Assembly (NCBI RefSeq): GCF_004010195.1
Contig: NC_057719.1
Span: 43,227,789-43,265,614, forward strand
From: Chiloscyllium plagiosum
Lineage: Eukaryota
Direction of reading: 5' to 3'
DNA: 37,826 nucleotides
Below are positions 588-36,457 of the stretch, in pieces. A model generated the notes under the pieces. That model was given only the letters and a program-made list of their open reading frames with translations. It was not told where the DNA came from and made no database searches. The translations under genes and the position numbers were made by a program. Numbering within the stretch: position 1 is the first letter of the stretch; every line of letters starts with the position of its first letter.

Positions 588-1630
588 TGTACAAAGTTAA
601 AAATCACACAGCATCAGGTTATAGTCCAACAGGTTTATTTGGAAGCACTAGCCTTCAAGGCGCTACCTCTTCATCAGGTAGTTGTGGAACAGGACCATAA
701 GACAGCTTTTTATAGCAAAAGGGTTATAGTGTGATGGAGCTGTAACAATATATTAAACAAATTTAGATTAAGTCTTTCATATTTTTAAATAGGATATGCT
801 AGTTTTGGTTCTTTAATATGTAAATCCCAGAGCTCTTTTTAAGTTACATTCTCAAGGTAGCTTCAGCTTTTCTGGCAATGGATGCCATCTCAGCTCAGAC
901 AATGCAGTAAAGATGTGAGGTTAAAGTCTGTCTGTGTCCCAGTGTTGAGTCAGACTGGTTCTATTTCTAAAATGGGACTTACAGAATCTTACATGGATTT
1001 ATGCAATATATTTTTGAGCAAAATAAAATGTAATTCTGCAATACAAATTCACCCCATAAACTTGTATATGCGCACAAGCAGAGGAGACAGTGAGTGCGTG
1101 CTTGTGAATGTGAACAAGCTTGGTCAAGTAGGTGTGTGAGTGTGATGGGGTATAAGCCTGTGAGAGGGTGCATGTGTGTACGTATTGCAGAGGGTCTGTT
1201 TGAGTATGTTGGAGTGTGTGTAGTAAAGTGGGGTCTCCTGTAGTGTGACATGAACCCAAGGTCCCAGTTGAAGCTATCTCCTTAGGTACCAAACTTGGCT
1301 ATCAGCCTCTGCTCAGCTGCTTTACATTGTTGCTTGTCCCAAAGTCTGCTATGGAGGATGGTCACCCAGGGGTCCAAGGCTGCATGTCCGAATGGGAGGG
1401 AACACTCCTGGCTGGTGATTGTTGCGCGGTGTCCATTCATCCATTGTCGTAGCGTCTGTTCAGTCTCACCAATGTACCATGCCTCAGGGCATCCTTGCCT
1501 GCAGCGTATGAGAGGCAACGTTGGCCAAGTCAACAAGTACCTGCTGCGTACGTGGTGGAAGGTGTCCCCACATGGAAAGGTGGTATTTATATCGACACTG
1601 ACATATCTTGAAGTGGTACAAAGTTGTTAA
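588..1630 (-). mobile_element. Penelope-like element 3' part: GIY-YIG endonuclease remnant, 3' UTR and hammerhead-bearing terminal repeat
   Basis: ORF 1282-1536 reads IRCRQGCPEAWYIGETEQTLRQWMNGHR...EQRLIAKFGT (YIG motif, catalytic R and E). The terminal segment 588-680 matches the arms at 34904-35110. Confidence 0.85.
646..680 (-). ncRNA. Degenerate minimal hammerhead ribozyme motif (family B)
   Basis: TAC-CTGATGA-A-GAGG tagcg CCTT-GAAG-GCTA-GTG; GAAA is mutated to GAAG. Confidence 0.65.
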
Positions 1631-1964
1631 TGACCACCACCGCGGGATCATGCACACGAGTAGTCACAATGATGGTGGAGTAACACAGTGTGATAGCCTT
1701 TCTTGGTTTGCAGCATTTGAGGTTGTGCACGACTGGACTTCAAATGTGGCACTAGTAATATGAGTGACACAAGGTCCAGCAATTGTGAGCACATTTGCCT
1801 CTGCTGCCACATGATTGCATCAGTTTGGCACCACAGAGCCCTAATATACATGTTATAATGCATACAAGATTGGTTTGAGCCACAATTGGACATCTGCCAT
1901 GAAATTATATGAAAATGGGAACATTCAGTCCATACTTTCCTCCATCTTTGTGTTTCTTTGCAGA

Positions 1965-2325
1965 GGGACTGAGGGGGAACCTGACTGAGATGAGCAAAGT
2001 TATGAAGGGCTTGGATCACATAAACAGGGAGAATGTTTTTCCCCTTAGTGGAGTAACAGTTTTAAGGACAGGGGATTTAGAGAGTATTTGTGGAAACATC
2101 TTTTCACCCAGAGGATTGTGGTTTTTTGGAACTCCTTTTACATAAAAAGGTGGGAGAAGCAGGAACACTCAAGACATTTGAGAAATATTTAGATGAGCAC
2201 TTGAAAGGCAATAGCACTCAGGCAGAGTGCTTGAAAGGGTACACTGGATTAGATGTATGCTTGATGAGTGGTGCACATTTCATGAGCGGAAAGGCCTTGC
2301 TCCATGCTATAAATGCACAATGACT
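1965..2325 (+). mobile_element. Old CR1 LINE 3' fragment
   Basis: Translates to GLRGNLTEMSKVMKGLDHINRENVFPL, a CR1 ORF2 C-terminus, followed by a CR1-type 3' UTR. Confidence 0.7.
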
Positions 2326-2849
2326 TGCAGTGTGCTTTTACTGTGTTTAAAAGCATTGCATGAGGAGAACAAACCACCATCCAAGAAAACTCAGTAAAGT
2401 CGCAGCAAAGAATAGGATCAATTCAGGAATCCCTACATCTACAAATTAATTAAGCAAGTTGATGTTGGCTCTGACATTCTCTCTAAGGCCATCAGCATCA
2501 TGAACCTTTATTCTGAATATCTTTGAACCTAATCAGAGTGAAGCTTCTCATCTTCCCCACTACATCTTATATTAGCGTCCTTTCATTTACAAACCATGTT
2601 GACACAAACAATCCATTTAGATGAATGTTATTTGGTGCATCTTTGCCAATGACCATGAAGGACAACACTGGGGAGGCAGGTTCTGGCATAGGTCCCATTC
2701 TGGATTTTGTTTTTGGTATTGAAGCCTGTTACCAAACTGCTGTATCCAGAAACTCTTCTGCTTGTGCATGTTGCTGACAAGATGTATCACCATTCCCCTC
2801 TTTCACCAATTCCTCCTTTCAAAATTTAAAAGTTTGATCAACTATTAAT

Positions 2850-3135
2850 TGAATCATAGAATCTCTTGTGTGGAAGCAGGATATTGGTCCATTGAGACCA
2901 CACCAGCATTCCGAAGAGCATCCCACCCAGACCGAGACCCTATGTCTGTAATCTTGCATTTCCCATGGCTAACCCACCTAGCCTGCATATTCCTGGACAC
3001 TATGGGCAATTTAGCATGGTCAGTCCACGTAACTAGCACATCTTTGGACACCAGGAGATTGTGTAAACTCACAGCTGCCCAAAGGTGGAATCAAGCCTGG
3101 GTCCCTGGTGCTTTGAGACAGCAGTACAAACCACC
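2850..3135 (-). mobile_element. HE1-type V-SINE, degenerate
   Basis: Reverse complement of the 3762-4073 element (ggcaatttagcatgg, catctttggac). Confidence 0.75.
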
Positions 3136-3176
3136 ATTTCACCCCTTTAACTTGCATGAAAATTACAATTGCTTAA

Positions 3177-3494
3177 GTGAGGAGCATGGATAGGGTAAAT
3201 AGACAAGGGCTTTCCATGGGGTGGAGGAGTCTAAAACTAGGGTGCACAGGATTAAGATGATGGGGGAAAAAATTTAAAAGGGGTCTAAGGGGCAATTTTT
3301 TCATAGAGGGTGATGCATTTCTTAATGAGTTACCAAGCAGTAGAGACTGGTACAATTACAACATTTAAAAGGCATCTGGATGGATATATGAATAGAGTTT
3401 AAAGAGGATATGGGCCTAGATTTACTTAGGATATCTTGTGGGCATGGACAAGTTGTTCCAAGGGGTCTGTTTGCATGCTGTACATCTATGACTC
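3177..3494 (+). mobile_element. CR1 LINE 3' end
   Basis: ggcaattttttcatagagggtg...catttaaaaggcatctggatgg...ctgtacatctatgactct tail; homologous to 16000-16332. Confidence 0.85.
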
Positions 3495-3761
3495 TGGTTT
3501 TCATGATTGCTTAAACATTTCAATGAAATTAATTCTCTTCACAATTTTAATTCAAGGAAATAGAACTATGAACCCATTGTGTTGATTTTAAAAGGGAAGC
3601 AGAATTGTGAATAAGTAATATCTAGTACAGCTATCAGGGAGGGAATAGCAGGTCTCCCGAATTAAACAAAAAGATAAACAGGTGAGACACTTCCATGAAG
3701 TCATGCACTTCAAACCATTAACTTTGTTCCTCTATTCAAAGATGTTGCCAGACATCTTTGT

Positions 3762-4073
3762 GGGCGGCACGGTGGTTAGCACTGCTGCCTCACAGTGCCA
3801 GAGACCCGAGTTCAATTCCCGCCTCAGGCGACTGACTGTGTGGAGTTTGCACGTTCTCCCCATGTCTGCGTGGGTTTCCTCCGGGTGCTCCGGTTTCCTC
3901 CCACCATCCAAAGATGTGCAGGGTCAGGTGAATTAGCCATACTAAATTGCCCGTAGTGTTAGGTAAGGGGTAAATGTAGGGGTATGGGTGGGTTTCGCTT
4001 CGGCGGGTCGGTGTGGACTTGTTGGGCCGAAGGGCCTGTTTCCACTCTGTAATCTAATCTAATCTAAAAAAAA
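3762..4073 (+). mobile_element. HE1-type V-SINE, near full length and young
   Basis: tRNA-like head (ggcacggtggttagcactgctgcctcacag...gagttcaattcc), V-domain (tgtgtggagtttgcacgttctcccc...ggtttcctccgggtgctccggtttcctcccac), CR1-like tail and (TAATC)n; many CpGs retained. Confidence 0.92.
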
Positions 4074-4589
4074 CCTGAGTTTCTACAGCATTTTGATTTT
4101 AATACAATTCCAGCAAGCTTTTTCCCATGGACACTGCAACAGAAGTCAAAATTCCAAACGAAGCAAATTCAAATTTAATGGAGAAGAGGAGGGGGGAGGG
4201 AAAGAGAGCGCATGAGCAAGAGATGCACCCTATCCTCTGTGGAGCAAGTTTTCTTGCATGGTTTTTCCACGACACAACTTATTCTGGACTGTATGGCAGT
4301 CTCCAGGGATATTACAGAAAGGTCTTAGCAGCTGGTGTTGTTACTCTTGCTACGAACAAATTCTGGGTTCAGTGTATGCTCCAGCTGGGAAATAATTGGT
4401 GAAACTCGAAGCAGCTGCCATATTTAAATTAGAGATCTTACAATTACTGAAATCCCAGACTGAAGCATTCTTTATTTCAAGTCCATTTAAAACCAGCCTT
4501 GCTGTGGAAAGATACCTTTAGTTTTGTAAAGATCATTAAGCTATTCTCAATCATTCTTGTAACATGCTGAACTGTGAAGGTATTACATG

Positions 4590-4930
4590 CAATTAGCTGT
4601 ATATTATTGTTTGTAGAAGGGATTGATGGTGAGTTAATCAAAGTTTTCTAAATATTCAGAGTTTCCCTCTATTGGCCTTTTTTTTGAAAGGGCACAGTCT
4701 TAAAAACAAAGATCCAATTGTTCAATGAGAGAAAATTAGGGAACACCAACAGAAAAAAGGTGTTTGAAGTTTAGAAATCTCTCTGCAAATGGTAAATTAA
4801 TGCTATATTGGTTAAGTTTAAACCTTGAGTTGACTGTTAATACCCTTTCGGTTAAGGTATAAATCAAATGAAGATAGTGAAACTTTGGCTGCCCTGCAAT
4901 CTGTGATGCAGATGAAGGGACTAAATATTT
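4590..4930 (+). mobile_element. Highly decayed CR1 3' fragment
   Basis: gattgatggtgagttaatcaaagttttctaaat...gggcacagtcttaaaa...gatgaagggactaaat resembles other CR1 ends. Confidence 0.5.
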
Positions 4931-5194
4931 CTAACATGTGGCTTAATATGACTTTAAACATTGCTAAGAGGAGCTTAGAAGTTGAAGTTTTTCATTTTTT
5001 TCAATTTAGAAAAAAATACATTTTTGTACTTAATGCAACCAAACATTTAAACAAGATACTGTAAACAAGAATTGAAAATGACCAATTTGTGCCAAAAGTG
5101 CCAACTGATAGATTCATATAGGTAAGGAGAGGCAAACAGAAACCGTACAAACAAACTTTAATTTGTATATATTAAAAAGCAACACAGTAAATAC

Positions 5195-7354: not shown

Positions 7355-7360
7355 GTTGAC

Positions 7361-7375
7361 CTACAAAACAAAGTT
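7361..7375 (-). other. Splice acceptor of the CDCA4 coding exon
   Basis: Minus strand reads actttgttttgtAG|gtcaacATG: pyrimidine tract plus AG, 6 nt before the start codon. Confidence 0.85.
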
Positions 7376-7711: not shown

Positions 7712-8006
7712 GAGTTTTGAGAAGATCTGCAGCTCCGGTTGAGATTCTGGATGTAGGTTTTCAGACTTTTCATCACCATACTAGGTAACATCAGTGAGCC
7801 TCTGGATGAAGCACTGGTGATATGGCCTGCTTTTTATGTTTCCTTGGAGTGGTGTTGCCATTTCCTGTTGTCATTTTCTGTTGTTTTTCTCAGAGGGTGG
7901 TAAATGGGATCCCACATAGACTTGGATCTCATTTACCACCCCCTGAGAAGAACAGGAAAACTTCTGAAAACGAACCTTACAGCTCAGCGAGCAAAACCTA
8001 CATCCA
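7712..8006. mobile_element. PLE-type terminal-repeat insertion with inverted halves (family C), in the CDCA4 intron
   Basis: Outer inverted segments (ctggatgtaggtttt / aaaacctacatccag) and an inner inverted repeat 7882-7912 / 7924-7954. 13-bp TSD gcaactggaggga (7699-7711) / gcaactgcaggga (8007-8019). Decayed hammerhead at 7761-7797 (minus). Confidence 0.7.
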
Positions 8007-8810: not shown

Positions 8811-10315
8811 CATAGAGTTGTACAGCACAGAAACCCATACTGACCAGGTATCCCAACCTAACCTAGTCCCATTTGCCAGCACTTGACCCATACTCCTTTA
8901 AACCCATGCAATTCATATGCGCATCCAGATGCCTTTTAAAATGTTGTAATTTTACTAGCCTCTACACTTCCTCTGGCAGCTCATTCCATACACGCACCAC
9001 CTGTGTGTGAAAACGTTGCCCCCCGGGTCCCTTTTTATCTTTCCCTCTCTCATCATAAACCTATGCCCTCTAGTTCTGAACTCCCCCCACCCCAGGAAAA
9101 AGACCTTGTCTATTTATCCTATTCATGACCCTCATGATTTTATAAATCTGAGGTCACCCCTCAGTCCCCGGGAAAACAGCCCCAGCCTGTTCAACCTCTC
9201 CCTGTAGCTCAAATCCTCCAGCCCTGACAACATCCTTGTAAATCTTTTCTGAACCCTTTCAAGTTTTACAACACCTTTCCGGTAGGAAGGAAACCAGAAC
9301 TACATGCAATATTCCAGAAGTGGCCTAATCAATGTCTTGTACAGCCGCAACATGACCTCTCAACATCAATACTCAATACTCTGACCAATAAAGGAAAGCA
9401 TACCAAACACCCTCTTCACTCCCCTAGCTACCTGCGACTCTACTCTCAAGTAACTATGAACCTGCACTCCAAGGTCTCTTTGTTCAGCAACACTTGCCAG
9501 GACCTTACCATTAAGTGTATAAGCCCTGCTAAGATTTGCTTTGCCAACAGGCAGCACCTCGCACTTATCTAAATTAAACTCCATCTGCCGCTCCTCAGCC
9601 TATTGGCCTGATCTGATCAAAATCCTACTGTAATATGAGGCAACCTTCTTCGCTGTCCACTACACGCCCAATTTTTGTCATCTCCAAACTTACTAACTAT
9701 ACTTCCTATGTTAGTGTCCAAATCACTTATGATAAAAAGTTGTGCACCCAGCACCGACTGTTGTGGCACTCCGTTGGTCACATGCCTCCAGTCTGAAAAA
9801 CAACCCTCTACCACCTCCTTCTGTCTTGTGTTTCAGCCAGTTCTGTATCCAAATGGCTAATTCTCCCTGTATTCCTCGAGATCTAACATTGCTAACCAAT
9901 CTACCATGGGGAACCTTGTTGAACACCTTACTGAAGTCCATGTAGATCATTCTGCCCTCATCCATCCCCTTACTTTTTCAAAAAAACTCAATCAAGTTCG
10001 TGAAACACAATTTCCCATGCACAAAGGAGAAAGTGAGGACTGCAGATGCTGGAGATCAGAGCTGAAAATGTGTTGCCGGAAAAGCGCAGCAGGTCAGGCA
10101 GCATCCAAGGAACAGGAGAATCGGGCATAAGCCCGAAACGTCGATTCTCCTGTTCCTTGGATGCTGCCTAACCTGATGCGCTTTTCCAGCAACACATTTT
10201 CAGTTCCCATGCTCAAAGCCATGTTGACTATCCCTAAATCAGTCCTTGCCTTTCCAAATACATGTAAATCTTGTCCCCTCATGATTCCCTCCAATAACTT
10301 GCCCACCACCGTCAG
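8811..10315 (-). mobile_element. CR1 LINE, 5'-truncated ORF2 (RT) pseudogene with 3' tail
   Basis: Frameshifted RT segments IYMDFSKVFNKVPHGRL, NGVPQQSVLG, SKFGDD, MEFNLDKCEVL; interrupted by the insertion at 10027-10203. Confidence 0.93.
10027..10203. mobile_element. Fold-back PLE-tail insertion (family A) nested in CR1
   Basis: 62-bp inverted arms 10062-10123 / 10142-10203 (3 mismatches); the loop carries GGGCATAAGCCC-GAAACGTC; 15-bp TSD 10012-10026 / 10204-10218. Confidence 0.85.
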
Positions 10316-12214: not shown

Positions 12215-12890
12215 ACATCAAGTTGATGGCAGTGAATCCCCCACTGTCAACATGCTGGGCATTATCTTTGACCAGAAACTCAACTGGACTCACCACATAA
12301 ACACAGTGACTACAAGAGCAGGCTAGCAACACTGTGGCAAGTAGCACATCTAATGACTCTCCAAAGTCTGTCCATCATCTACAAGGCACAAGTCAGGAAT
12401 GTGATGGAATACTCCCCAGTTGCCTGGATCAGTGCAGCCCCAACAACATTCAAGAAGCTTGCCATCACCCAGTACAAAGCGGCCTGTTTGATTAGCACTA
12501 CGTCCACAAGTGTCCACTCCCTCCACCACCCACATTCAGGAGCAGCAATGAGTACTATTTACAAGAAGCAGTGCAGAAATTCACCAAAGATCCTCCGACA
12601 GCACCTTCCAAATCCACAACAAGGGCAGCAGATACACGGGAATGCCACCGCATTCTAATTCCCCTCCAAGCCACTCACCATCTTGACTTGGAAATATATC
12701 ACTGTTCCTTCACTGTTGCTAGGTCAAATTCCTGGAATTCCCTCCCTAATGGCATTGTAGGTCAACCCACAGCAGGTGGATTGCAGCGGTTCAAGAAGGC
12801 AGCCCATTACCACCTTCTCAAGGGCAGCTAGGGACAGGAAATTAATGTTGGCCAGCCAGCACTGCCCACATCTCACAAATTAATACATTA
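12215..12890 (+). mobile_element. Non-LTR retrotransposon 3' end (CR1/L2 superclade, CR1-Zenon-like); same family as 20335-23871
   Basis: LGIIFDQKLNW, IYKAQVRNVMEYSPVAW...QYKAACLI, FKKAAHYHLLKGS*; inverted homologue at 20335-21050. Confidence 0.85.
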
Positions 12891-12894
12891 ACAT

Positions 12895-14422: not shown

Positions 14423-15023
14423 AAAGAGAAAATGCTGGAAAATCTCAGCAGGTCTGGCAGCATCTGTAAGGAGGGAAAAGAGCTGACGTTTCGAGTCTAA
14501 CTGACCCATTGTCAAAGCTAAAAAAAGGGAGAAATAGGGAGGTATTTATACTAGGCTGAGAGATGGTGAGTCATGGCTCCAGAAGCAAAGGTAGCAATAA
14601 AGAGGTGATAATGACAGTACATAGAGAGATTATAGGGAGATGACCAAAGCTGAAGCTGTGACAAAATATGAGGGGGATGGGTGAAGCAGAAGCAAAATGG
14701 AAAACAGGGGAGAAGGGTAGCAAAGGGGGAAGAGGAGAAGAAAAAGGCGGTGAGAGAGTGGGGAGCAAGAGAAAGAGAAACAATCAAGAAATAAGAGGTA
14801 CAGAACAGTGAAAAAAATATTTAAAAAGTAAAATAAATGAAATAAAATTACGGAGCAGAATGAAAACAGAGGGGTCGACATGGGATAATCATCTGAAGTT
14901 GTTGAATTCAATGTTGAGACCAGCAGGCTGTAACATGCCTAGTCGGAAGATGAAATGCTGCTCCTCCAGTTTGCGTTGAGCTTCACTGGAACATTGCAGC
15001 AGGCCAAGGACAGGTCTCTTCAA
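14423..15023 (-). mobile_element. Penelope-like (Neptune-type) element 3' end with TSD
   Basis: 14889-15011 translates to VLGLLQCSSEAQRKLEEQHFIFRLGMLQPAGLNIEFNNFR* (GIY-YIG C-terminus), then a pyrimidine-rich UTR and a hammerhead motif. Exact 12-bp TSD CAGCACTGACCA at 14411-14422 and 15024-15035. Confidence 0.88.
14481..14519 (-). ncRNA. Minimal hammerhead-like motif, variant core (family A')
   Basis: AGCT-TTGACAA-T-GGGTC agtta GACTC-GAAACGTC-AGCT; stems I and II intact, core differs from CTGACGA at 2 positions. Confidence 0.6.
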
Positions 15024-15049: not shown

Positions 15050-16332
15050 CTGGACATTATCAATGTGGATTTCAGTAAGGCGTTCAACAAGGTTCCATGT
15101 GGCAAAGTGATTAACAAGGTTTGAGAGCATGGAATACAGGGAGTATTAGCCATATGGATTCAATATTGGCTCAAAGGTAGGAGGTAGAGTGTGGTGGTGT
15201 GAGGGTTGATTTTTGGACTGGAGGACCGTGATCAGCGGTGTGCTACAAGGAGCGGTGCTGGGTTCATTGCTTTTTGGCATTTATATAAATGATTTGGGTG
15301 TGAACATAGGAGGTACAGTTAGTAAGTTTGAAGATGAGACCAAAATTTGTGGTGTACTGGACAGCGAAGAAGGTTCAAAAAAGTGTGGCGCTGGAAAAGC
15401 ACAGCAGATCAAGCAGCATCTGAGGAGCAGCTGTATTGACATTTCAGGCAATAAGCCCTTCATCAGGAATGTGTGTACCTGAGAGTACAACAGGACCCTG
15501 ATCAGGTAGGCAAATGGGCCGAGGAGTGCCAAATGGAATTTTGTTTAGACAAATGTGAGATGCTGCATTTTGGGAAGGCAAATCAGGGCAAGACTTATAC
15601 ACTTAACAGTAAGGTCCTGAGGAGTGTTGCTGAACAAAGAGACCTTGGAGTGCAACTTCATAATTCCTTGGAAATGGAGTTGCAGTTAAAAGGGTGGTGA
15701 AGACAGTGTTTGCTACACTTGCCTTCATTGGTCTGTGCAATGAGTGTAGGAGTTGGGAGATCATGTTGCAGCCATACAGAACATTGGTTAGGCCACTTTT
15801 GGAATACTGCATTCAACTCTCAACTCCCTGCTGTAGGAAAGATGTTATTAAATTTGAAAGAGTTCAGAAAAAATGTACAAGAATGTTGCCAGGGTTAGAG
15901 GATTTGGGCTATGGGAGAAGGTGAATAGGCTGGGGCTATTTTCCCTGGAGCATCAGAGGCTGAGGGGTGACATTGTAGAGGTTTACAAAATCATGAGAAG
16001 GCATGGATAGGGTGAATAGCCAAGGTCTTTTCCCCAGTCCAAAACTAGCGGACATGTGTTTAAGGTGAGAGGGGAAAGATTTAAAGGGAATGTAAGAGGC
16101 AACTTTTTCTTGCAGAGGATGGTGCACGTATTGAATGAACTGCCAGAGGAAGTGGTGGAGGTTGGTAGAATTACAACATTTAAAAGGCATCTGAATGGAT
16201 ACATGAATAGGAAGGGTTTAGTGGGATATGGGCCAAATGCTGGCAAATGGGACTAGATTTATTTAGGATATCTGGTTGGCATAGACATGTTGGACCGAAG
16301 GGTCTGTTTCTGCGCTATACAACTCTATGACT
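15050..16332 (+). mobile_element. CR1 LINE ORF2 (RT) pseudogene with 3' tail
   Basis: DFSKAFNKVP, SGVLQGAVLGSLLFGIYINDL, SKFEDETKI, LVRPLLEYCIQ; interrupted at 15376-15475. Confidence 0.93.
15376..15475 (-). mobile_element. Short hammerhead-bearing PLE-tail insertion (family A) nested in CR1
   Basis: Splits CR1 gaagaaggtt|acctgagagtac; minus strand ATTC-CTGATGA-A-GGGC ttatt GCCT-GAAATGTC followed by the family tail. Confidence 0.8.
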
Positions 16333-16333
16333 T

Positions 16334-17204
16334 TGTCCTTTTCCTGCAGTTCAGAATTCATCTCATTCAGTTTTGATATAATATCTGTAAGGAACTTGTG
16401 GTTGAGCAACCATACATTGTCTGACAACTCACTGCACACTTCATTTCTTGAGTTAAGAAAAGAGATTTAAGGCATCAGATCTAAAAGTCTTTGCAGCACC
16501 TTACCTCAACCTAAACATCTCACATCCACATGGAGGATTAGTTCATAGTAGCATCACATTTGTTGATTTAAACAAGTGACACTGAAGTGCTCTTGCTCAA
16601 ATACTGCTTACAATCTTAACAACAACTTTAATTACTCTAGAATGTCCATAACTTTATTTGCTAATTCTAGCTTGTGGGGGCATGGATAGCTTATACACTG
16701 ACAGTAAATTCAATGCAATTCAAAGAGGAAAGCACCAAGTGACATGCTCTGTATTGATGTTATTTTCTTTTTTGTTCTTAAATTCTTTTAATGAAGAGCC
16801 AGTGGCTACACTTATTACTTCTTTAATTACTTTTACATCTATCAACGAATCCTTTATTGGGTTTTTCTTGAAGGTGGCAAACATGAAAAAAGATTTGTGA
16901 GTACAAACCTGACGTTTTGCTACTGGTTTAGAAAAAAAGTGACTGCTGAGCTTTCAAAACTGTCTTCAGATTATTTACTGTCTTTGTCTGAAGCATGCTG
17001 TTCAAAGGAAAACTTGAATTAACTGTGCATTGTTGTGTGATATTGTTCCAAATTTCCCTTTTTAATTATTGATTTTACTTTAGTGTCATACAAAGCAAAC
17101 ACTCTTATCTTTACAGTTGTGAACACAAATTCATTTTCCCATTCTGAGTGGAAATTGTACATTTTTGATTTCTTTTTAGATGGTCCAGATTCATCACTCA
17201 TCAA
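16334..17204 (-). pseudogene. hAT (Charlie/Buster/SPIN, GTF2IRD2-like) transposase remnant
   Basis: SKKKSKMYNFHSEWENEFVF...KKGNLEQYHTTMH, then LKAQQSLFSKP, VVKIVSSI*ARALQ, LHVDVR, GKVLQR, LSDNVWL...FLTDIISKLNEMNSELQ; stops, frameshifts and an internal deletion. Confidence 0.8.
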
Positions 17205-19529: not shown

Positions 19530-20162
19530 GAGACAGGGTGGTGAAGAAGGTCTTTAGTACACTTGCCTTTATTGGTCACTGTATTGAGTATAGGAGTCGG
19601 GAGGTTGCAGCTATATAGGACATTGGTTAGGCCACTTTTGGAATACTGTGTTCAATTCTGGTCTCCTTGCTATAGGAAAGATGTTGTGAAACTTGAAAAG
19701 GTTCAGAAAAGATTTACAAGAATGTTGCTGGGATTTGAGGATTTAAGCTATAGAGAGAAGTTGAATAGGCTGGGACTTTTTTCTCTGGTATGTACGAGGC
19801 TGAGAGGTGAGCTTTCAGAGGTTATATAGTCATGAAGGGGCATGCATAGAGTGAATAGCCAAAGTCTTTTTCCCACAGTAGGGGAGTGCAAAACTAGAAG
19901 GCATAGGTTTACAGTGAGAGGGGAAAGATTTAAAAGGGACCTAAGGGGCAACTTTTTCATGCAGAGGGTGATGCGTGTATGGAACGAGTACCAGAGAAAG
20001 TGGTGGAGACTGGTAGAATTACAATGTTTAAAAGACATCTGGATGGATACATGAATAGGAAGTTTTGAGGGATGTAGGCCAAATGCTGAGAAATGGGATC
20101 TGTGGTCAGCATGGGTGAGTTGGACTGAAGAGTCTGTTTCCATGATATATAACTATGACTGT
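19530..20162 (+). mobile_element. CR1 LINE 3' fragment
   Basis: LYRTLVRPLLEYCVQFWSPCYRKDVVKLEKVQKRFTRML...LNRLGLFSL and a CR1 tail. Confidence 0.93.
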
Positions 20163-20169
20163 ATGAACC

Positions 20170-20305: not shown

Positions 20306-22194
20306 ATATATGCAGTTCAAAATGCTTTTTTTAAATTTATTCAGTTTTTTTAGTGGGATGTGGACATCACTGGCTGGCCAGCATTTATTGCCTGTCCCTA
20401 GTTGCCCTTGAGGAGGTGGTGGTGTGCTGCCTTCTTGAATTGCTGCAGTCCACCTGCTATGGGTTGACCCACAATGCCATTAGGGAGGGAATTCCAGGAT
20501 TTTGACCCAGCGACAGTGAAGGAACAGCGATATATGTCAAAGTCAGGATGGTAAGTGGCTTGAAGGGGAACGTGAAGGTGGTGGTGTTCCCATATATATC
20601 TGATGCCTTTGTCCTTCCACATGGAAGTGGTTCTGAGTTTGGAAGGTGCTGTCTGAGGATCTTTGCTGAGAATTTCTGCAGACCATCTTGTAGACAATAC
20701 ACACTTCTGCTACTAAGCGTTGGTGGTGGAGGGAGTGGATGCTTATGGATGCAGTGCCAATCAAGCAGGCTGCTTTGTCCTGGGTGGTGTCAAGCTTCTT
20801 GAGTGTTGTTGGGACTTCACTGATCCAGGCAAGTCAGGAGTATTCCATTACACTCCTGACTGTGCCTTGTAGATGGTGGAAAGGCTTTCAGGAGTCAGGA
20901 GGTAAGTTATTCACCACAGTATTCCTAGCTGCTGACCTGCTTACCACTGTGTTTACATGGTGAGTCCAGTTAAGTTTCTAATCAATGATAACTCCCAGGG
21001 TGTTAATAGTGGAGGATTCATTGATGGTAACACCATTGAATGTCAAGGGATGGTGGTTAGATTATCTATTGTTGGTGATAGTCATAGCCTGATATTTGTG
21101 TGGCACAAACGTTACTTTCCACTTGTCAGCCCAAGCCTTGATATTGTCCAGATTTTGTTGCATTTGGACATGAACTGCTTCAGTTTTTGAGGAGTCGCAA
21201 ATGGTGCTGAACATTTGTGCAATCTTTGGCAAATATCCCCACTTCTGACCTTATGATGGAGGGAAGGTCAATGATGAAGCAGTTGAAGATGGTTAGGCCT
21301 CGGACATGATCCTGAAGAACTCCTGTAGAGATGTCCTGGAGCTAAGATGACTGACCTCCAAAAGCCATGACCATCTTCCTATGTGTCAGGTATGACTCTA
21401 ACCACTCGAGTTTGCCCCCCCCCCCCAGATTCCCATTGATTCCAGTTTTGCTGGAGGTCCTTGATGCCACACTCAGTCAAATGCAGCCTTGATGCCAAGG
21501 GCTGCCACTCTCACCTCACCTCTCGAATTCAGCTATTTTGTCCATGTATCAAGGCTGTAATAAGGTCAGGAGCTAAGTGACCCTGGTGGAGCCCAAACTG
21601 AGCATCAGTGAGCAGGTTATTGCTGAGCAGGTGCTGCTTGATAGTACTGTTGTTGGCACCTTCCACCACTTTACTGATGATTCAGAATAGACTGATGGGG
21701 CGATAATTGGCTGGGTTAGATTTGTCCTGCTTTTTATGTACAGGACATACTTGGGCAATTTTTCACACTGTTGGGTAGATGCCAGTGTTGTAACTGTACT
21801 GAAACAGCTTGACTAGGGGAACGTCAAGTCTGGAGCACAAGTCTTCAGTACTATTGTCAGAATGTTGTCAGGGCCCATAGCCTTTGCAGTATCCAGTGTC
21901 TCCAACTATTTCTTGAAATCACGTGGAGTGAATTGAATTGACTGAAGACTAGTATCTCTAATGCTGGAGACTACTGGAAGAGGCCGAGATGGATCATCCA
22001 CTTGACACTTCTGGCTGAAGATTGCATTACCTTTTGCACTGATGTGCTGGGCTGTTACATCATGGAGGATGGGAATATTTGTGGAGCCTCCTCCTCCTCC
22101 TGTGAGTTGTTTAATCGTCCACTACCATTCACGACTGGATGTGGCAGGACTGCAGATCTTAGATCTAATCCATTGGTTGTGGGATTGCTTAGCT

Positions 22195-22324
22195 TCATCA
22201 GGATTCCTAATGAAGGGCTTTTGCCCGAAACATCGACTCTCCTGCTCCTCGGGTGCTGTGCTCTTCCAGCACCATCCTCTTAACTCTAATCTCCAGCATC
22301 TGCAGTCCTCACTTTTGCCTAGCT
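22195..22324 (+). mobile_element. Short hammerhead-bearing PLE-tail insertion (family A) nested in the LINE
   Basis: TTC-CTAATGA-A-GGGC tttt GCCC-GAAACATC-GA plus tail; preceded by a small inversion cttcatcagga; TSD 22182-22194 / 22325-22337. Confidence 0.85.
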
Positions 22325-22510: not shown

Positions 22511-22952
22511 GATACGCAAGGCCATGGATGCCTGATCTTGAGCTGCTAGATCTGTTCGAAGTCTGTCCCATTTAGCACGGTGATAGTGCCACACAATACA
22601 ATGGAGGTTATTCTCAATGTGGAGGTGGGACTTCATCTCCATAAGGACTGTGTTGTGGTTGCTGTTACTGATACTGCCATGGACAGATGCATTTGCAGCT
22701 GACAGACTGATAAGAATGAGGTCAAGTATGTGATACGCAAGGCCATGGATGCCTGGTCTTGAGCTGCTAGATCTGTTCGAAGTCTGTCCCATTTCGCACG
22801 GTGATAGTGCCACACAATACAATGGAGGTTATTCTCAATGTGGAAGTGGGACTTCATCTCCATAAGGACTGTGTTGTGGTTGCTGTTACTGATACTGCCA
22901 TGGACAGATGCATTTGCAGCTGACAGACTGATAAGAATGAGGTCAAGTATGT
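22511..22952. repeat. 221-bp direct tandem duplication
   Basis: Copies 22511-22731 and 22732-22952 differ at 3 positions by my reading. Confidence 0.95.
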
Positions 22953-24264
22953 TTTTCCCTCCTGTTGGTTCCTTCACCGTCTGCCACAGACTCAGTGTAG
23001 CAGTTATATCCTTTAGGACCTGACTAGCTTGATCAGTAGTGCTGCTGTCAAGCCCCTCTTGGTGATGAACATTGAAATCCCCCACCCAGAGGATATTTTG
23101 TGCCATGGCCATCCTCAGTGCTTCCTCCAAGGGTTGTTCAACATGGAGGAGTACCTATTCATCAGCTGAGAGCGAATAATATGTGGTAAGTAGCAGGAGG
23201 TTTACTTGCCCATGTTTAACCTGAAGCCATGAGACTTCATGTCCAGAGTCAATGTTGAGGACTCCCAGGGCAACTCCCTCCTGACTATATACCACAGTGC
23301 TGCCACCTCTGCTAGCTCCATCCTACCGGTGGGACAGGACATATCCAGGGATAGTGATGGTGGCGTCTGGGACATTGTCTGTAAAGTATGAATCCATGAG
23401 TATGATTATATCAGGCTGTTGCTTGACTAGTCTGTGAGACAGGTCTTCCAATTTGGCACTAGCCCCCAGATGTTAGTGAGGAGGACTTTGCAGGGTCGAC
23501 AGGGCAGTTCCTGCTTTACGTTTTCCAGTGCCCAGGTCAATGCCAGGTGATCTGTCCAGTTTCATTCTTTGAGAGTCTGTAGCAATTGGTACAACTGAAT
23601 GGGTTGCTAGGCCATTTCAGATGGCAACTGAGAGTCAACCATATTGATGGGGGTCTGAAGTCACATTAGGCCAGACCAGGTGAGGATGGGCAGTTTTCTT
23701 TCCCTGAGGGACTTCAGTGAACCAGATGGATTTTTTCTGACAATTGTTTCATGATCATTATTAGATCCTTAAATCCAGATTTTATTGAATTCAAATTCCA
23801 CTATCTGCCATGGCGGGATTCGAACCTGGGTCCCCAGAACATTATCTGGGTCTCTGAATTAATAATCGCCTTTCGTATCCTTCAGAAAAGCTGTATTAGG
23901 AAGTAACACAAAGGACTGAATCTTACTTTTTTTTGGCTAAGTGCAAGTTATGTTGAGTTTTTTTGGAGAGTTTTTCACCACAAGGTCTCCTGAGATTTGT
24001 TGTCATATCTTATTCTTAAGAGTATCTTTGTTATTAATTGTTCGATGAATAATCAAACAATATCTTAGAAGTAGAATTACTTATTGTGTCAACTCCACCT
24101 AGTGGTAATCAAATGCATATGTTCAGAGTGAATATCTGAGATATTTATTTGCATATTTATGCACAATGTGAGGCTTCAATGGAGCAGAAACAGTGCTGCT
24201 TCACATTGATAGATCTACTGGTCTGGAATGTGAAGTAACAGCTGTGTTACACTGTTATAAATAA

Positions 24265-24620
24265 TAGAGTCATAAAGATACAGAGCACGGAAACAGACCC
24301 TTTGGTCCGACCCATCCATGCCAACTAGATATCCTAAATAAATCTAGTTCCACTTGCCAGCATTTGGCTCAAATCCCTCTAAACCCTTCCTATTTATATA
24401 CCCATTCAGGTACCAGCCTCCACCACTTCTTCTGGCAGCTCATTCCATATACCCATCACTGTCTGCATGAAAAAGTTGCTCCCTTTTAAATTTTTCCCCT
24501 CTCACCTTAGACCTATGCCCTCTATTTTTGACTCACCTAATCTGGGGAAAAGACCTTGTCTATTTACCCTATTCTTGCCCCTCATAATTTTATAAACTTC
24601 TGTAAGGTCACCCCTCAAAC
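24265..24620 (-). mobile_element. CR1 LINE 3' end
   Basis: atagagtcataaagatacagagcacggaaacagaccctttggtcc... is the reverse complement of the CR1 tail. Confidence 0.88.
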
Positions 24621-29060: not shown

Positions 29061-29124
29061 TGGAATATGCAGCCACAATGACAGAGCACAAATTTAAAAG
29101 ACTACCAGTGAAGCTTTAAGAGAT

Positions 29125-29220
29125 TTTCTTTTAATCAACTTGTTTAGACATGGTATGCCACATGCCTGGGACAGATGGGACTTGAAACCGGATCTTCTGG
29201 CCCAGGTAAGGAAACAAGCC
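29125..29220 (-). mobile_element. Short tRNA-derived SINE, decayed
   Basis: B-box-like ggtttcaagtccc; homologous to 33530-33632. Confidence 0.5.
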
Positions 29221-29600: not shown

Positions 29601-29726
29601 TGATGAAGGGCTTTTGCCCGAAACGTCGATTTTACTGCTTCTCAGATGCTGCCTGAACTGCTGTGCTCTTCCAGCACCACTAATCCAGAATCTGGTTTCC
29701 AGCATCTGCAGTCATTGTTTTTACCT
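29601..29726 (+). mobile_element. Short hammerhead-bearing PLE-tail insertion (family A)
   Basis: TGATGA-A-GGGC tttt GCCC-GAAACGTC-GATT plus a tail nearly identical to 36377-36456. Confidence 0.85.
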
Positions 29727-30500: not shown

Positions 30501-31332
30501 GAATTGAATTGAATTAGCTTTATTGTCTCATGTACACAAATGAGTACAGTGAAAAGTTTATAAGTTGTCATTAACTGTGCTACCTTGGATACAAAGGTGC
30601 CAAGATACAATCCTTAGTTGCAGAATAGAGAAATGAAGAAAAAAAGGTAGATTACAGCTCTACACAACATAACCACAGATCAGAAAAACAAGAAGCAAAG
30701 TTAAAAAGACAAACATCACAGTCTCTTTCCAAAGTCTGTCCACAGCAAACCAGTGCAGGGGACCTCTACTTGTTCTGACTGTTGGCTATCATCGTAGTCT
30801 GCCGGCATCCCTGCTCTGGCTGCTGGTCACCAGCCTCCCTGTTCAGGCTGCAGGCATCCCTGCTCTGGCTGCTGGTCACTGGTATCCCCACTCTGGTTGC
30901 GGGCACCAGCGTCTCTGCTCTGGTTGCTGGTCACTGGCATCCCCACTCTGGCTGCTGGTCACCGGCCTTCCTGTTCAGGCTTCTGGCATCCCCACTCTGG
31001 CTGCTGGTCACCGGCCTCCCTGTTCAGGCTTCTGGCATCCCCACTCTGGCTGCTGGTCATCGGCCTCCCTGTTCAGGCTTCTGGCATCCCCACTCTGGCT
31101 GTTGGTCACCGGCCTCCCTGTTCAGGCTGCAGGCGTCCCTGCTCTGGCTGCTGGTCACTGGCATCCTTGCTCCAGCTACTGGCATCCTTGCTCTTGCCAC
31201 TGGCATCTCCGCTGACTGCCAATCCCAGCTGGAGCCAAGTGTCCAAGGCCAAGAGAAGGGAGGAGATAGGGAGAAAAAAGAAAAAGAATAGGTAGAGCAG
31301 AGGAGCTCTGTGTCCTACTCTGCCACCATCTT
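30501..31332 (-). mobile_element. Non-autonomous retroelement (Rex/Babar-like ends) carrying a minisatellite
   Basis: 5' end AAGATGGTGGCAGAGTAGGAC; 3' end cactgtactcatttgtgtacatgagacAATAAAgct + (AATTC)n; no RT between. Confidence 0.55.
30804..31215. repeat. GC-rich minisatellite, 49-bp unit built from 28- and 21-bp subunits
   Basis: ggcatcc-like unit starts at 30804, 30853, 30881, 30936, 30985, 31034, 31083, 31132, 31160, 31181, 31202. Confidence 0.92.
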
Positions 31333-31334
31333 AC

Positions 31335-32120
31335 CAGAATGATGCTGATCTGACATTTCTCACATCCACTTTCTTGCCTTTTCCTATAACCTTTGATTTT
31401 TCTACTTAGCAGAAATCTATCTATCTCACTCTTCAGTATTCAACAAGGACTCAGTCTCCACAGCTTTCTGTGGCAAGGAGTTCCAAAGATTCACGACCCT
31501 CTGAGAAGAAATTCTGAGACTAGATTCTCCCCATGAAGGAAAATATTATCTCCTTATTTATCTTGTCAAGCCCCTTAGGAACCTTATATGTGTCAATGAG
31601 ATCACTTCTCATTCTTCTAAACTCCAGTGAGTCCCAACCTGTTTAGCCTTTGCTCTTAAGACAAACAATATATTCTGAGGATCATCCTTGTGAACCTTCT
31701 CTGAACTTCCACCAATGAAACAATATCTTTCCTTAAATAAGGGAACCAAAACTGCTCACAGTAGTCCAATGTGGTCTCACCAACATGTTGTACGGTTGCA
31801 GTAAGACTTCCTTACTCTTAAACTGTAAACCCCTTGAAAGAAGGACCAACATTCCGTTAGCCCTTGATTAAGTGCTAGCTTTCTGTGTTTTATGCGTAAG
31901 TACCCCCAAGTCCCTTTGTGTTGCTATTTTTCTCAATTTAAATAATACTGTTCTCTTGTTCTTTCCAAAATGAACAACTTCACATTTTCCCACATTATAC
32001 TCTATTTGCTAACTTTTTGCCCATTTATTTAATCTATCAATATCTCTCTGTAAACTTTGTATAACTATTTTTATAAGCTGCCTTTCCACCTATTTTTGAC
32101 TGCAAATTTAGCTGCAATGC
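31335..32120 (-). mobile_element. Old CR1 fragment
   Basis: ggaaccaaaactgctcacagtagtccaatgtggtctcaccaac (LVRPHWTTVSSFG-like decayed LVRPHLEYC), acaacttcacattttcccacatt. Confidence 0.75.
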
Positions 32121-32335
32121 TAGGTTCTTTGTCTTAAGATTCTTACACACTTGATGCAACTTAATACGCCAACTTCTGTGAACAACCAAAATTTATGAAG
32201 TAAGTACAAGCTTTGGAAGAACTCTTAACACTCTTCACAATGCCTGTGAAGCATGTCAAGAGAAGCTCTGTAAACAAAGGAACGGACACCTTCCTTTATA
32301 CAAAATCTTTACATCACAGTCAGTAATGCCCACAA

Positions 32336-32421
32336 TTCTAAATTAGTGGTGCTGGAAGAATAAAGCAGTTCAGGCAGCATCCAAGGAGCAGCGAAATCGA
32401 CATTTCGGGCAAAAGCCCTTT
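32336..32421 (-). mobile_element. Short PLE-tail insertion (family A) with partial hammerhead
   Basis: Minus strand AAGGGC tttt GCCC-GAAATGTC-GATT plus tail; 10-bp TSD atgcccacaa (32326-32335) / atggccacaa (32422-32431). Confidence 0.8.
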
Positions 32422-32789
32422 ATGGCCACAAGACAAGCCCCAGCCACATGCTACTCAAGACACAATGCAGTGACCTGATCATCTCCAGAAACGGTGTAAA
32501 GTAAATCATACCTTAATGGTCAGATCTGTTGTAAATCATTTTTTTAACTACAGGGTGTGATCAGAATTCCAAGTGCAATGTTCTTATTGATACTGAATGG
32601 CAGGCGATGACAAAGTGAATGGTAGAAGAAAATGTAAATTTACTTCTGAGTAGTCGGAGATGGCAAAGTAATTTTTTTACATTGTATCTGCAAGACAAAG
32701 ACATACCACCCTACCCTCGGGACATCCAATTTCTTGCAGGTCAGCAGAATAAATTAACCCTTTAACATCTCAGCAAGACATTCACCTTC

Positions 32790-33190
32790 TTCCTAGAAAT
32801 AATTAATATATATTGTAAACAGTTGCAGTCCCAGCACTGATTCCACCCCACTGATTGCAGGTTGCCAACCTGAATAGGAAGTCCTTATCCCCACTTGCTG
32901 TTTCCTGCCCATCAGCCAATCGTCTATCCCTGCCAATATACCAGCACCAACAGTGTGGGCTCCTATCTAATGACGTAACCTTTTGTGAAGTACTTTGTTA
33001 AATGCCTTTTGGAAGTCCAAATGCAACACATCTACTGGTTCTTCTGTATCCACTCTGGTTGACACTCCCTCATAAAACTCAAATAAATTAATCAGAAAAA
33101 ATTTCCCTCTCATGAAGTCATGCTGATTTTCATTTGTTGTGATTTTCCAAATGCTATTACTTCCTTTTAATCAATTCTATCATTTTAATG
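32790..33190 (-). mobile_element. Old CR1 RT fragment
   Basis: Minus strand gatgtgttgcatttggacttccaaaaggcatttaacaaagtacttcac = DVLHLDFQKAFNKVLH. Confidence 0.75.
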
Positions 33191-33529
33191 GCAGTCATTT
33201 TCAATGGCAATACATGAGTGGGAAAATGGACTATAATATTTGTCAATATTCATCATTTAAAGTGAAAAATATGCTCCTACTGACAAAATGTCACAGGAGA
33301 TTTACTAGAGGGAAATAAAGGTAATCATTTTTATGAATAGAGTTTTGGCAGAATGGGGATTCTGCTTCCTTTTACCTATAGATCTGCATCTAGATTTGCC
33401 ACAAAATGGGCAAATATTAAAAATCCAGCCTAATAGCTGTATTGTTTTTAATCACCACTTGATGGCACCAAAGCATGAGAAAATGCAGTTTTTAGGTGAA
33501 AGACCAGATTCCCAGTGGTAATTTAACGT

Positions 33530-33632
33530 ATTTTTTCAAATCAACCTGTTCAGAGATGTTATTACACAACTCTGGAGCAGGTGGGACTTGAACCCAGGCC
33601 TCGGGACACTATCACTGTACCACAAGAGGGCC
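33530..33632 (-). mobile_element. Short tRNA-derived SINE
   Basis: Minus strand ggccctcttgtggtacagtgatagtgtccc...gggttcaagtcccacc (A and B boxes) ending in an A-rich tail. Confidence 0.65.
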
Positions 33633-33934
33633 AGATTATATTAACAATGTTAAATCACAAATGCATGCAACTGGCCCAACAAATGATTTGAGATACCTCA
33701 CAATTTATAGTGGACTAAGATGCTTAAATATTAAAGAGATACAGGAATACAAATGGTTTCAGAAAATCTGAACCTTATGAGACAGTGGCAATTGTCATTA
33801 TTTTACAAAATAAATTTTATAAATCAAAACATTATTCAAATTATTTTTACACTACAGTTTATTGTCTTAATAATTCTTGGCTCCAGTTTTTATCTCTCTA
33901 ATCTGTTAACAAATTTCTAAATCATTAGATATCA

Positions 33935-34197
33935 TGGGGTGGTATGGTGAGCCATAGTGCCAGGAACCTGGGTTCAATTCCACCCTTGGGTGACTGTGTG
34001 GAATTTGCATGTTCTCCTGTGTGGGGTTTCCTTCCACAGTCCAAAGATGTGTAGGTTAGGTGGATTAGCCATGCTAAATTGCTCAGGGATATGCAGACTA
34101 GGTGGATTCGCCATAGAAAATACAGTGTTGAGGTGGGATGGTTTTTGTAGGTTTGGTTTGGGCCGAATGGCCTGTTTTCACACTCTCAGTGCTTTAT
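33935..34197 (+). mobile_element. HE1-type V-SINE, degenerate
   Basis: gggttcaattcc...gactgtgtggaatttgcatgttctcc...ccaaagatgtgtaggttaggtggattagccatgctaaattg...ggccgaatggcctgtttt. Confidence 0.85.
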
Positions 34198-34866
34198 GAG
34201 AAGACATCTTTAATAGTCACTCAAACCAGCAAAATTTTGATTAGTTCAGCTATAGTAGCAGTTTTAGAAATCACATCTGGAGAGGGCAAATTATTTTCTG
34301 ACAGTAAATTTGGCGAAATCTCTAGTATTTTGGAATATAATTTATTCTATTATTTATATGAAGGAAAACTGAAACAAATGCTCGCTTTAGTATGTTGCAA
34401 TAATTATTAGCAAAGTATCAGTAGTTTTTTGGTTTTTGGGTTGATTTTAACTTCGGTGACTGAATCCCCCAAAGAAATGTGTAAGGGTTTCAAAGCTTTT
34501 AGATGGCTTATCTTTATCTCCCTTTGTCAGGAATGCTACCCAGGAATTTTCCAGTGTTAATGGACAGTTCACCAGAGAGGGATTTGGATTTTCAGGCAGG
34601 ATTTCTGTCAATACAAAGCTGGCTATATCTCTTAAAATTACAAGATTTTTGTTTTGTACACAGAGAGAGACAAAGGCATCCAACTATCTGGACCCTGTCC
34701 TGGAGATTTACTTGTGTAAAATAAACTTTAGTACTCCCTCACTGAAACTAGAGTGCTTCACAAAACACTGAAACAAGCTTGAAGGGAGAGTTCAGAACAA
34801 ATGAATACTCCTAATGTATAGCTAGAATGTTCAAGGTTAAAAAAAGACAAACTTATCCATAATAAG

Positions 34867-35110
34867 CATGATTTGGAGATGCCGGTGTTGGACTGGGGTG
34901 TACAAAGTTAAAAATCACGCAACACCAGGTTATAGTCCAACAGGTTTAATTGAAAGCACACTAGCTTTCAGAGCGTCACTCCTTCATCAGGTGGTAGTGG
35001 AGGGCTCAATCCTAACACACAGAATGATGAAGGAGCGACACTCTGAAAGCTAGTGTGCTTCTAATTAAATCTGTTGGACTATAACCTGGTGTTGTGTGAT
35101 TTTTAACTTT
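34867..35110. mobile_element. Fold-back PLE terminal-repeat insertion (family B) with two opposed hammerhead motifs
   Basis: 86-bp inverted arms 34904-34989 / 35025-35110; exact 14-bp TSD TTATCCATAATAAG at 34853-34866 and 35109-35122. Confidence 0.88.
34959..34993 (-). ncRNA. Minimal type-I hammerhead ribozyme motif with intact core
   Basis: CAC-CTGATGA-A-GGAGT gac GCTCT-GAAAGCTA-GTG: stem I CAC/GTG, stem II with G-U pairs, palindromic AGCT in place of stem III, predicted cleavage after CUA. Confidence 0.75.
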
Positions 35111-35129
35111 ATCCATAATAAGAATTGCC

Positions 35130-35580
35130 TTTTTGTTGCTATAAGAAGCATGTTATTAAACTGGAAAGGGTGTAGAAAAGATTTACAAGGATTTTGCCAA
35201 GACTAGAGGGTTTGATTTATAAGGAGAGGCTGAATATGCTGGGACTTTTTTCCCTGGAGCATCAGAGACTGAGGTGGGACCTTATCGAAGTTAAAAGAAT
35301 AATGACGGGCACAGCTAAGGTGAATAGCCAAGATCATTTCCCCTGAGTAGTGGAGTCCAAAATTAGAGGGCATAAGTTTAAGATAAGAGGGGAAATATTT
35401 AAAAGGCACCTGAGGAGCAACTTTTTCATGCAGTGCATGGTGCATATATGAAATGAATTACCAAAGGTTAGTGCCATTACAATATTTAAAAGACAGGTTC
35501 ATGAATAGGAAAGGTTTGGAGGGATTTGGGCCAAAGACAGGCAAACAGGACTAGTTCAGTTTAAGAAACCTAGATGGCAG
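35130..35580 (+). mobile_element. CR1 LINE 3' fragment
   Basis: attaaactggaaagggtgtagaaaagatttacaagg...ggacttttttccctggagcatcagagactgagg. Confidence 0.88.
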
Positions 35581-35861
35581 AAAGAGAAATGAAAATAAGT
35601 GTGTATTTTTATCCTGGAGACAAAATAACACCCAGCTATTTGAGCTCCTGATGTGTTCAATACTTACTTTTCATTGTTCCCTTTCTGCTATTTGCTGGCC
35701 ACTTTACAAAATTGATCCCTTCTGAAATTGAGTCTTTAGTTGGTCTTTTCAGCCAGTATCCACTGTATAGTGTAGTGGACCTTTGTAATTCATAGGCCAG
35801 GGAACATTCTGGGAACATAGGCATGCAGGCCTTCCATTACTGCTGACATGGAACAAACTCT

Positions 35862-36457
35862 CTTCTCACCTCCATCCAAGGCCCTAAAGGAGCCTTCCAC
35901 ATCCATCAAAGTTTTACCTGCACATCCACTAATATCATTTATTGTATCCGTTGCTCCCGATGCGGTCTCCTCTACATCGGGGAGACTGGNNNNNNNNNNN
36001 NNNNNNNNNNNNNNNNNNNNNNNNNNNNNNNNNNNNNNNNNNNNNNNNNNNNNNNNNNNNNNNNNNNNNNNNNNNNNNNNNNNNNNNNNNNNNNNNNNNN
36101 NNNNNNNNNNNNNNNNNNNNNNNNNNNNNNNNNNNNNNNNNNNNNNNNNNNNNNNNNNNNNNNNNNNNNNNNNNNNNNNNNNNNNNNNNNNCTTCCCTGA
36201 CCTATCACCTTCATCTCCTTCCCCACTGACCTATTGTACTCTATGCTACTCTCTCCCCACCCCCACCCTCCTCTAGCTTATCTCTCCATGCTTCAGGCTC
36301 TCTGCCTTTATTCCTGATGAAGGGGTTTTGCCCAAAACGTCAATTTTGCCTGTCCTCGGATTTTGCCTGTCCTCGGATGCTGCCTGAATTGCTGTGCTCT
36401 TCCAGCACCACTGATCCAGAATCTGGTTTCCAGCATCTGCAGTCATTGTTTTTACCT
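35862..36457 (+). mobile_element. Penelope-like (Neptune-type) element 3' part spanning an assembly gap
   Basis: 35865-35989 (a frame not in the ORF track) reads LTSIQGPKGAFHIHQSFTCTSTNIIYCIRCSRCGLLYIGETG (GIY-YIG). After the N gap come a C/T-rich UTR, CTGATGA-A-GGGG tttt GCCC-AAAACGTC (36314-36341) and the family A tail. Confidence 0.88.
35990..36191. other. Assembly gap (N run)
   Basis: Run of N; true length unknown. Confidence 0.99.

Follow-up and report, generated by a model that had tools for sequence, protein, structure and literature searches.

Two questions are raised by a stretch of 37,826 nt from the shark Chiloscyllium plagiosum (NC_057719.1, positions 43,227,789 to 43,265,614; "the window" below). 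Are the hammerhead-like motifs that recur in it real ribozyme sequences of Penelope-like elements (PLEs), and how did so many short copies arise? An initial annotation, made from the sequence alone, had listed such motifs, tied them to PLE ends and supposed a very large population in the genome. We find that the motifs are real minimal hammerhead ribozyme sequences in end pieces of PLEs, the pseudo-long terminal repeats (pLTRs). Minimal hammerheads in PLE pLTRs are already known, and the shark families are new members of this class. The overall reading that we consider probable is that these are the pLTRs of several PLE families with minimal type-I hammerheads, and that the short copies likely come from reverse transcription that was primed in the 5' leader and ran off the RNA start.

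Hammerhead families and PLE coding sequence

All 11 sites named in the initial annotation were located in the window and confirmed, with family A at six of them and families B, D and E at the others. A strict descriptor found one window site with no core change (34990(-)) and two with up to two changes (adding 14515(-)), compared to 0 and 0.15 matches, respectively, in 20 dinucleotide shuffles. Since this descriptor demands a 3-bp stem I, the common subfamilies A1 and A2 cannot pass it. A looser core pattern gave 131 matches, versus one in reversed sequence, in a random sample of 145 loci of 10 kb taken in 1-Mb steps on 15 contigs (1,379,357 non-N bases). In this sample we counted 65 exact cores, and 283 copies reach into the core (195 of family A, 57 of B and 31 of D), or one copy per 4.9 kb with families C and E outside the count; the extrapolated total, again leaving out C and E, is ∼0.7 million pieces. 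Genome-wide, exact intact cores number 143,649 (112,126 with an ACGT and 31,523 with an AGCT palindrome), compared to 25 matches (16 and 9) for the reversed-pattern controls. The supposed large population is borne out. An Rfam scan of the window returned no hammerhead family and only hairpin-type chance matches, and a hammerhead array is not among the nine tandem rows of the window.

The architecture was assessed on seven subfamily majorities drawn from 103 core-anchored copies. The core boxes CUGANGA, GAAA and UH are present at the family level and are kept while the stem I and stem II pairs differ. The first stem II pair is G10.1-C11.1 in all seven, with stems of 3-6 bp, and one unpaired base lies between A9 and stem II. 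Stem I has 3-4 pairs that differ in sequence among A, B, C and D; in A1 and A2 it reads ATTC/GATT with a U-U mismatch. The stem III palindrome is CG or GC in 89 of the 131 matches, CpG-decay forms account for 38, and four are of other forms. The minimal type-I architecture with a palindromic stem III was therefore correctly recognized, as was the pairing of stems of differing sequence; the original list of stems omitted ATTC/GATT of family A, and family C is at least one further hammerhead family in the genome.

The copy originally placed at 14481 (position 3 at 14515) has a U3-A8 core. This pattern has 1,839 matches genome-wide versus 153 in the control. Among 100 U3-A8 matches listed, 94 share the stem II of the 14515 copy (family E), and among 100 U3-G8 matches listed, none belongs to its family. 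U3-A8 is a compensatory core pair and a trait of the whole family of this copy. About 1,700 exact copies of the U3-A8 family (window 14482-14519 (-)) were counted. Since the two core changes of the 14481 copy are a family trait, this copy is not decayed, and a complete core is found in two of the 11 window copies, 34990(-) and 14515(-). The remaining nine, by alignment to genomic copies, are truncated into the core or altered in the core or stem III. The earlier statement that most copies are decayed holds for these nine and fails for the intact 14481 copy.

Since CpG decay is alike at core site G12 (19/114) and at tail position +44 (22/113), copies appear to drift once they are inserted. Outside CpG sites, mismatch is lower in the core than in the tail (0.03 vs 0.058), but this was rejected as a sign of selection on copies: only copies that aligned through the core entered the sample, and subfamily differences reside in the tail. 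Individual genomic copies are likely inert, with selection borne by master elements. A dimer fold can be drawn without pseudoknots, and the minimal type-I hammerhead of each family is predicted to cleave only as a dimer.

The link to PLEs is supported by coding sequence. As the initial annotation had it, three window copies (36314, 14481 and 646) lie downstream of GIY-YIG endonuclease remnants, the last of them weak. All 150 scored genomic matches to the peptide upstream of 36314 (35871-35987) are identical to it, and it is 100% identical to copies passing Pfam PF01541. The remnant of the 14481 copy matches a copy passing PF01541 with an E-value of 3e-12, and that of the 646 copy reaches 0.002, yet has the Cys/YIGET motif. 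PF01541 was detected on four of seven genomic pieces, three of them above the cut-off. A genome search with PF01541 gave one match among 150 scored candidates and was uninformative, and Pfam and PDB searches returned nothing for the window peptides or for the 121-aa reverse transcriptase (RT) piece. Locus L093 contains a YIDD RT piece, an endonuclease and two hammerheads in succession; its best homologues are in carpet sharks and rays, and many of these carry PF00078. Family A has an RT followed by a C-terminal GIY-YIG domain with two cysteines between the GIY and YIG boxes, and its longer copies also have a C-x4-CxxC linker (C-HRRN-CKTC in piece P0002). Families B and E are represented by endonuclease remnants only; the evidence from coding sequence covers families A, B and E. 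The N-terminal and C-terminal parts of the open reading frame (ORF) were seen in separate loci. At least seven loci within L182-L196 (e.g. L183:5712-6142 and L185:5131-5560) have identical inverted junctions between the hammerhead end and the endonuclease beside N runs; these recurrent junctions may reflect an error in the assembly or an inverted subfamily that has propagated.

Starts and ends of the copies

Copy coordinates count from C3 of the core (0) on the ribozyme strand. The predicted cleavage site of family A lies between +27 and +28, and the outer end of stem I falls at position -4. Of 222 tail-anchored family A copies, 52 start at -5 to -3 and four at +28 to +30, the cleavage site, which in A1 and A2 contains an ATT word as at -4; 16 start within +25 to +32. 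The end rates per base, computed on family A copies reaching +40, are 0.155 at -5 to -3, 0.0095 near the cleavage site, 0.0092 at +5 to +25 and 0.003-0.005 upstream of -12, and 142 of 286 family A matches span the whole core. Family A copies start 3-5 nt before C3 and not at the cleavage site, which is a new observation. Among family B copies with near-intact cores, a set that includes loci picked for an intact core, 44/66 start at -1 to -11, and the sequence shared by 28 family C copies fades beyond -5. Loose ends listed for three sequencing runs of other organisms also include the -4 junction. A 3' splice site at -4 was considered and rejected, there being no AG before it.

The 60 copies starting at -6 to -2 are preceded by an inverted arm (28), other flank (28), ORF sequence (2), UTR-like sequence (1; UTR, untranslated region) or an N run (1). 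At the other side, copies end at about +75-95 and +123-127. Solo copies of 85-130 nt with target duplications are common, and inverted arms end at varied positions. A pLTR with hammerhead, an optional tail of 30-40 nt, 5' truncation, inverted copies and target duplication were all observed.

All four copies found to run from the hammerhead into the ORF start at -2 to -5 (L230 and L223 at -2, L258 at -3, L177 at -5). A second hammerhead starting near -4 lies beyond an ORF-internal break in three of them (L230, L223 and L177). In L230, the hammerhead and tail lead into an ORF that matches the N-termini of homologues of 841-889 aa (E 1e-10); after 1.9 kb a break leads to a second hammerhead, running from -4 to near +126, and the entire copy lies between the two halves of a 9-bp duplication. 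Judged from this sequence arrangement, the tail is the ORF leader; the ATG of the family A ORF is about 160 nt downstream.

Reads of family B in poly(A) RNA of a relative show a strand bias of about ten to one over the core. In the same RNA, 751 reads (337 + 414) have poly(A) at +57/+60, preceded by an AWTAAA word at +40 to +45. The genomic 3' ends of family B are at +83 to +91 and +120; since they lie past the poly(A) site, the copies were probably not primed at the poly(A) end. The poly(A) reads may come from host genes using inserted copies. In one genomic family B copy (L074:1540-1580, +40 to +80), the hammerhead is followed by the poly(A) signal, the addition site at +57/+60 and a GU-rich tract; inserted family B copies may supply 3' ends to host transcripts.

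The base before -4 was counted in subfamily A2, which itself has C at -5. It is G in 3,336 copies, A in 1,123 and T in 915, with expected shares of 0.25, 0.37 and 0.38, respectively. The A at -4 in A2, A3 and C has a TCA-K-TY context, which we take to resemble an initiator. In family A, the ACGT palindrome of stem III (+23 to +27) is 28-31 nt past the inferred start, near the position of RGACGTGY in Drosophila LINE (long interspersed nuclear element) and Penelope promoters, to which it matches at five of eight positions only. Drosophila Penelope has an internal TATA-less promoter within its pLTR (PMC2377424), and in full-length L1 insertions an extra G marks copying of the cap (PMC11702581).

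Origin of the short copies

The starts at -4, the ORF-bearing copies that start there and the excess of G upstream suggest that cDNA was primed in the 5' leader, ran off at the capped end and then jumped; for run-off at the cap and the jump, the DNA junctions are the basis. Under this model, RNA would start at the outer end of stem I, so that the hammerhead would be transcribed first and recur at the 3' end. The RT would prime about 90 or 125 nt downstream, copy uncleaved RNA and reach the capped 5' end. The resulting short cDNA could be joined to the target as a solo copy, fold back as a head-to-head pair, or jump elsewhere on the RNA. A jump onto the 3' hammerhead copy would yield long copies with direct repeats, a final step that we purely infer. 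In vitro, a PLE protein from anole primes inside the pLTR-ORF junction and uses uncleaved RNA, and the PLE protein assists hammerhead cleavage (PMC11167929).

A broader proposal is tentative, and in our judgement somewhat more apt to fail than to hold. PLEs would replicate in a retrovirus-like manner, from RNA flanked by hammerhead segments, with a strong-stop cDNA of 90-130 nt reaching the cap and jumping onto the 3' copy; the shark pieces would be failed jumps, and the length of stem I would be set by the start site. If this is true, hundreds of thousands of hammerhead pieces in the shark are failed jumps, and the RNA start site dictates the short stem I of animal PLE hammerheads.

Several observations weigh against the overall reading of hammerhead-bearing pLTRs with run-off at the RNA start. 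The start cluster of family B is broad, and no start pile-up at the hammerhead was found in family D (29 copies). RNA reads from a poly(A) single-cell library of another organism show no concentrated molecule starts or ends. In all seven copies folded, the hammerhead dimer is less stable than the predicted minimum-energy dimer by 12-16 kcal/mol. A full-length element was not recovered, because all 15 candidates with long open frames ran into N runs. The G before -4 is also open to question. At 16/30 G loci the junction is inverted and the G may derive from the arm, and a clean target duplication plus one G is present in only 2/14 non-inverted G loci. When inverted, native and duplicate loci are removed, the G share is 0.40 (95% range 0.28-0.50) vs 0.25, and in a small unselected set G is not in excess (10/43, p 0.29). 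The G excess is partly templated, and its signal is confounded.

The pile-up at -4 could instead result from endonuclease cutting or microhomology joining at the ATT there, rather than from an RNA start. In anole, the PLE protein cleaves its own ORF-pLTR junction at 5'-ATT-3' (PMC11167929), and, by eye, the G of ∼7/14 non-inverted G loci falls within a target duplication, exact or short, mostly with AT next. We consider this explanation unlikely, since the ATT words at +29 (A1/A2) and at -74/-81 show no pile-up, families B and C cluster alike without ATT, and a target duplication plus extra G is left unexplained (L059, L144, L276 and L279). Somewhat less likely again is an origin from separate non-autonomous masters resembling short interspersed nuclear elements, or from self-priming on an antisense template (PMC3846280). 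The common solo copies with target duplications speak for this explanation, and the head-to-head form of 28 of the 60 copies starting at -6 to -2 was read as self-priming in that report. Against it, short and long copies carry identical subfamily variants, the ORF-bearing copies start at the same position, and the inverted arms end at varied positions.

Two further alternatives concern the ribozyme itself. The motif might be kept for another reason, as a promoter or protein-binding site, without cleavage. Metazoan minimal hammerheads show low in vitro activity (PMC4209133), catalytic mutants leave in vitro insertion unaffected (PMC11167929), and the predicted dimers are weak; yet both the replacement of the catalytic 3-8 pair by U3-A8 throughout a family and the alternation of stem III palindromes, ACGT or AGCT, are consistent with selection on an RNA fold, and we hold this explanation to be improbable. 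The least credible is that the copied RNA owes its ends to self-cleavage, in the way that a ribozyme resembling that of hepatitis delta virus acts for R2. The - arm of the insert at window 10024-10206 does start at +27, the cleavage site, and 16/222 copies start within +25 to +32, but the end rate there equals that at +5 to +25, and half of the family A matches (142/286) contain the whole core. Self-cleavage as the setter of copy ends is already disfavoured. Priming in the leader with run-off at the RNA start remains our preferred reading of the short copies.

Window copies and known systems

The copies in the window are summarized in Table 1.

Table 1. Hammerhead-bearing PLE pieces in the window (positions in the window; signed numbers relative to C3).
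Position	Strand	Family and type	Composition	State of hammerhead and flanks
587..1572	-	B, PLE 3' fragment	GIY-YIG remnant ~1572-1240, 3' UTR, hammerhead (646 in the initial annotation), tail	C3 at 677; A15.1>G
7763..8006		D, fragment	- copy; inverted + partner 7913-8006 without core	C3 at 7794(-); first core box minus 3 nt; stem III altered
10024..10206		A, fold-back insert	+ arm stem II (+8) to +88; - arm +27 to +126	10123(+) begins at stem II, without first core box; duplicated target at 10012 and 10204
14428..14984	-	E, PLE 3' fragment	Endonuclease C-terminus 14984-14892, 3' UTR, complete hammerhead	U3-A8 core, position 3 at 14515; stem I AGCT/AGCT; stem II 5 bp
15385..15470	-	A, solo copy	Starts at -4	C3 at 15466; stem III CpG decayed
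22203..22321	+	A, copy	Starts at -4 behind short inverted arm	C3 at 22207; G5>A; stem III decayed
29601..29726	+	A1, solo copy	+1 to +126	Without C3 and stem I 5' strand
32343..32420	-	A1, solo copy	+6 to +83	Without first core box
34869..35111		B, head-to-head pair	- arm 35019-34869; + arm 35025-35111, begins at +1	- arm: complete hammerhead, C3 at 34990, CUA triplet; + arm: without C3; 14-bp duplicated target at 34853 and 35109
35871..36457	+	A1, PLE 3' fragment	GIY-YIG N-terminal half 35871-35987, N run 35990-36191, 3' UTR, hammerhead, tail to +126	C3 at 36314; G12>A

Other repeats share the window. Copies of another abundant repeat, 5'-truncated, are located at 8835-9950, 15056-16339, 19531-20166, 24259-24617, 35107-35579 and 37564-37825; they resemble what we take to be 3' ends of CR1/L2-type LINEs. 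The hammerhead copies at 10024 and 15385 are inside or adjoin this repeat. A 221-bp tandem duplication (98% identical) and a GC-rich 49-bp minisatellite are present at 22511-22952 and 30802-31207, respectively, and a 650-bp repeat occurs as two inverted copies with 79% identity at 12230-12879 and 20350-21023.

The closest published counterparts are the minimal hammerhead ribozymes of metazoan PLE pLTRs reported by Cervera and De la Pena (2014, PMC4209133). Both have the type-I core, G10.1-C11.1, one unpaired base before stem II, palindromic positions 15.2-16.2, a short stem I, several consensus families and mostly solo copies. The U3-A8 swap was likewise reported there earlier, in Schistosoma PLEs. 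That PLE pLTRs carry minimal hammerheads, and that these require a dimer, is published (PMC4209133; review PMC6765202; PMC6155905). The shark differs in number, with 143,649 exact cores as compared to ∼4,000 in coelacanth and 9,000 in Xenopus, a comparison in which both the descriptors and the sizes of the genomes differ. The text consulted from PMC4209133 names no shark and maps no copy ends. A literature search, with most subscription papers outside its coverage, found no report of shark PLE hammerheads, nor of run-off, cap G or jumps at a PLE hammerhead. Animal non-LTR retrozymes also have type-I hammerheads from PLE pLTRs, according to a preprint that sampled one chondrichthyan genome (bioRxiv 10.64898/2026.07.22.740005). 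Retrozymes form tandem arrays with a hammerhead in each unit, whereas the window copies are solo, head-to-head or ORF-linked.

Family A resembles the Neptune clade of endonuclease-bearing (EN+) PLEs (PMC8557442) in its RT, C-terminal GIY-YIG, two inter-box cysteines and upstream C-x4-CxxC linker. This likeness is one of motifs and is not exclusive, as Nematis has the same linker (PMC8557442). The linker (CX2-5CxxC) separates family A from Penelope and Poseidon, which are without it. Poseidon of Anolis carolinensis (Frangieh et al. 2024, PMC11167929) is similar in having a hammerhead at the pLTR-ORF junction, two 3' end positions (tail) and copies from uncleaved RNA. Its ORF begins in stem II, in contrast to the ATG of family A, ∼160 nt downstream.

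By these results a known class gains shark families in very large number, with >140,000 intact cores and ∼0.7 million extrapolated pieces. The junction map is the more useful part, since it bears on how PLE pseudo-LTRs are built and on the role of the hammerhead (PMC8557442, PMC11167929). The available account of Poseidon gives no fixed 5' run-off point or jump (PMC11167929), unlike family A, for which a fixed start 4 nt before the core, priming past the poly(A) site and jumps from the start would together make a specific, testable model.

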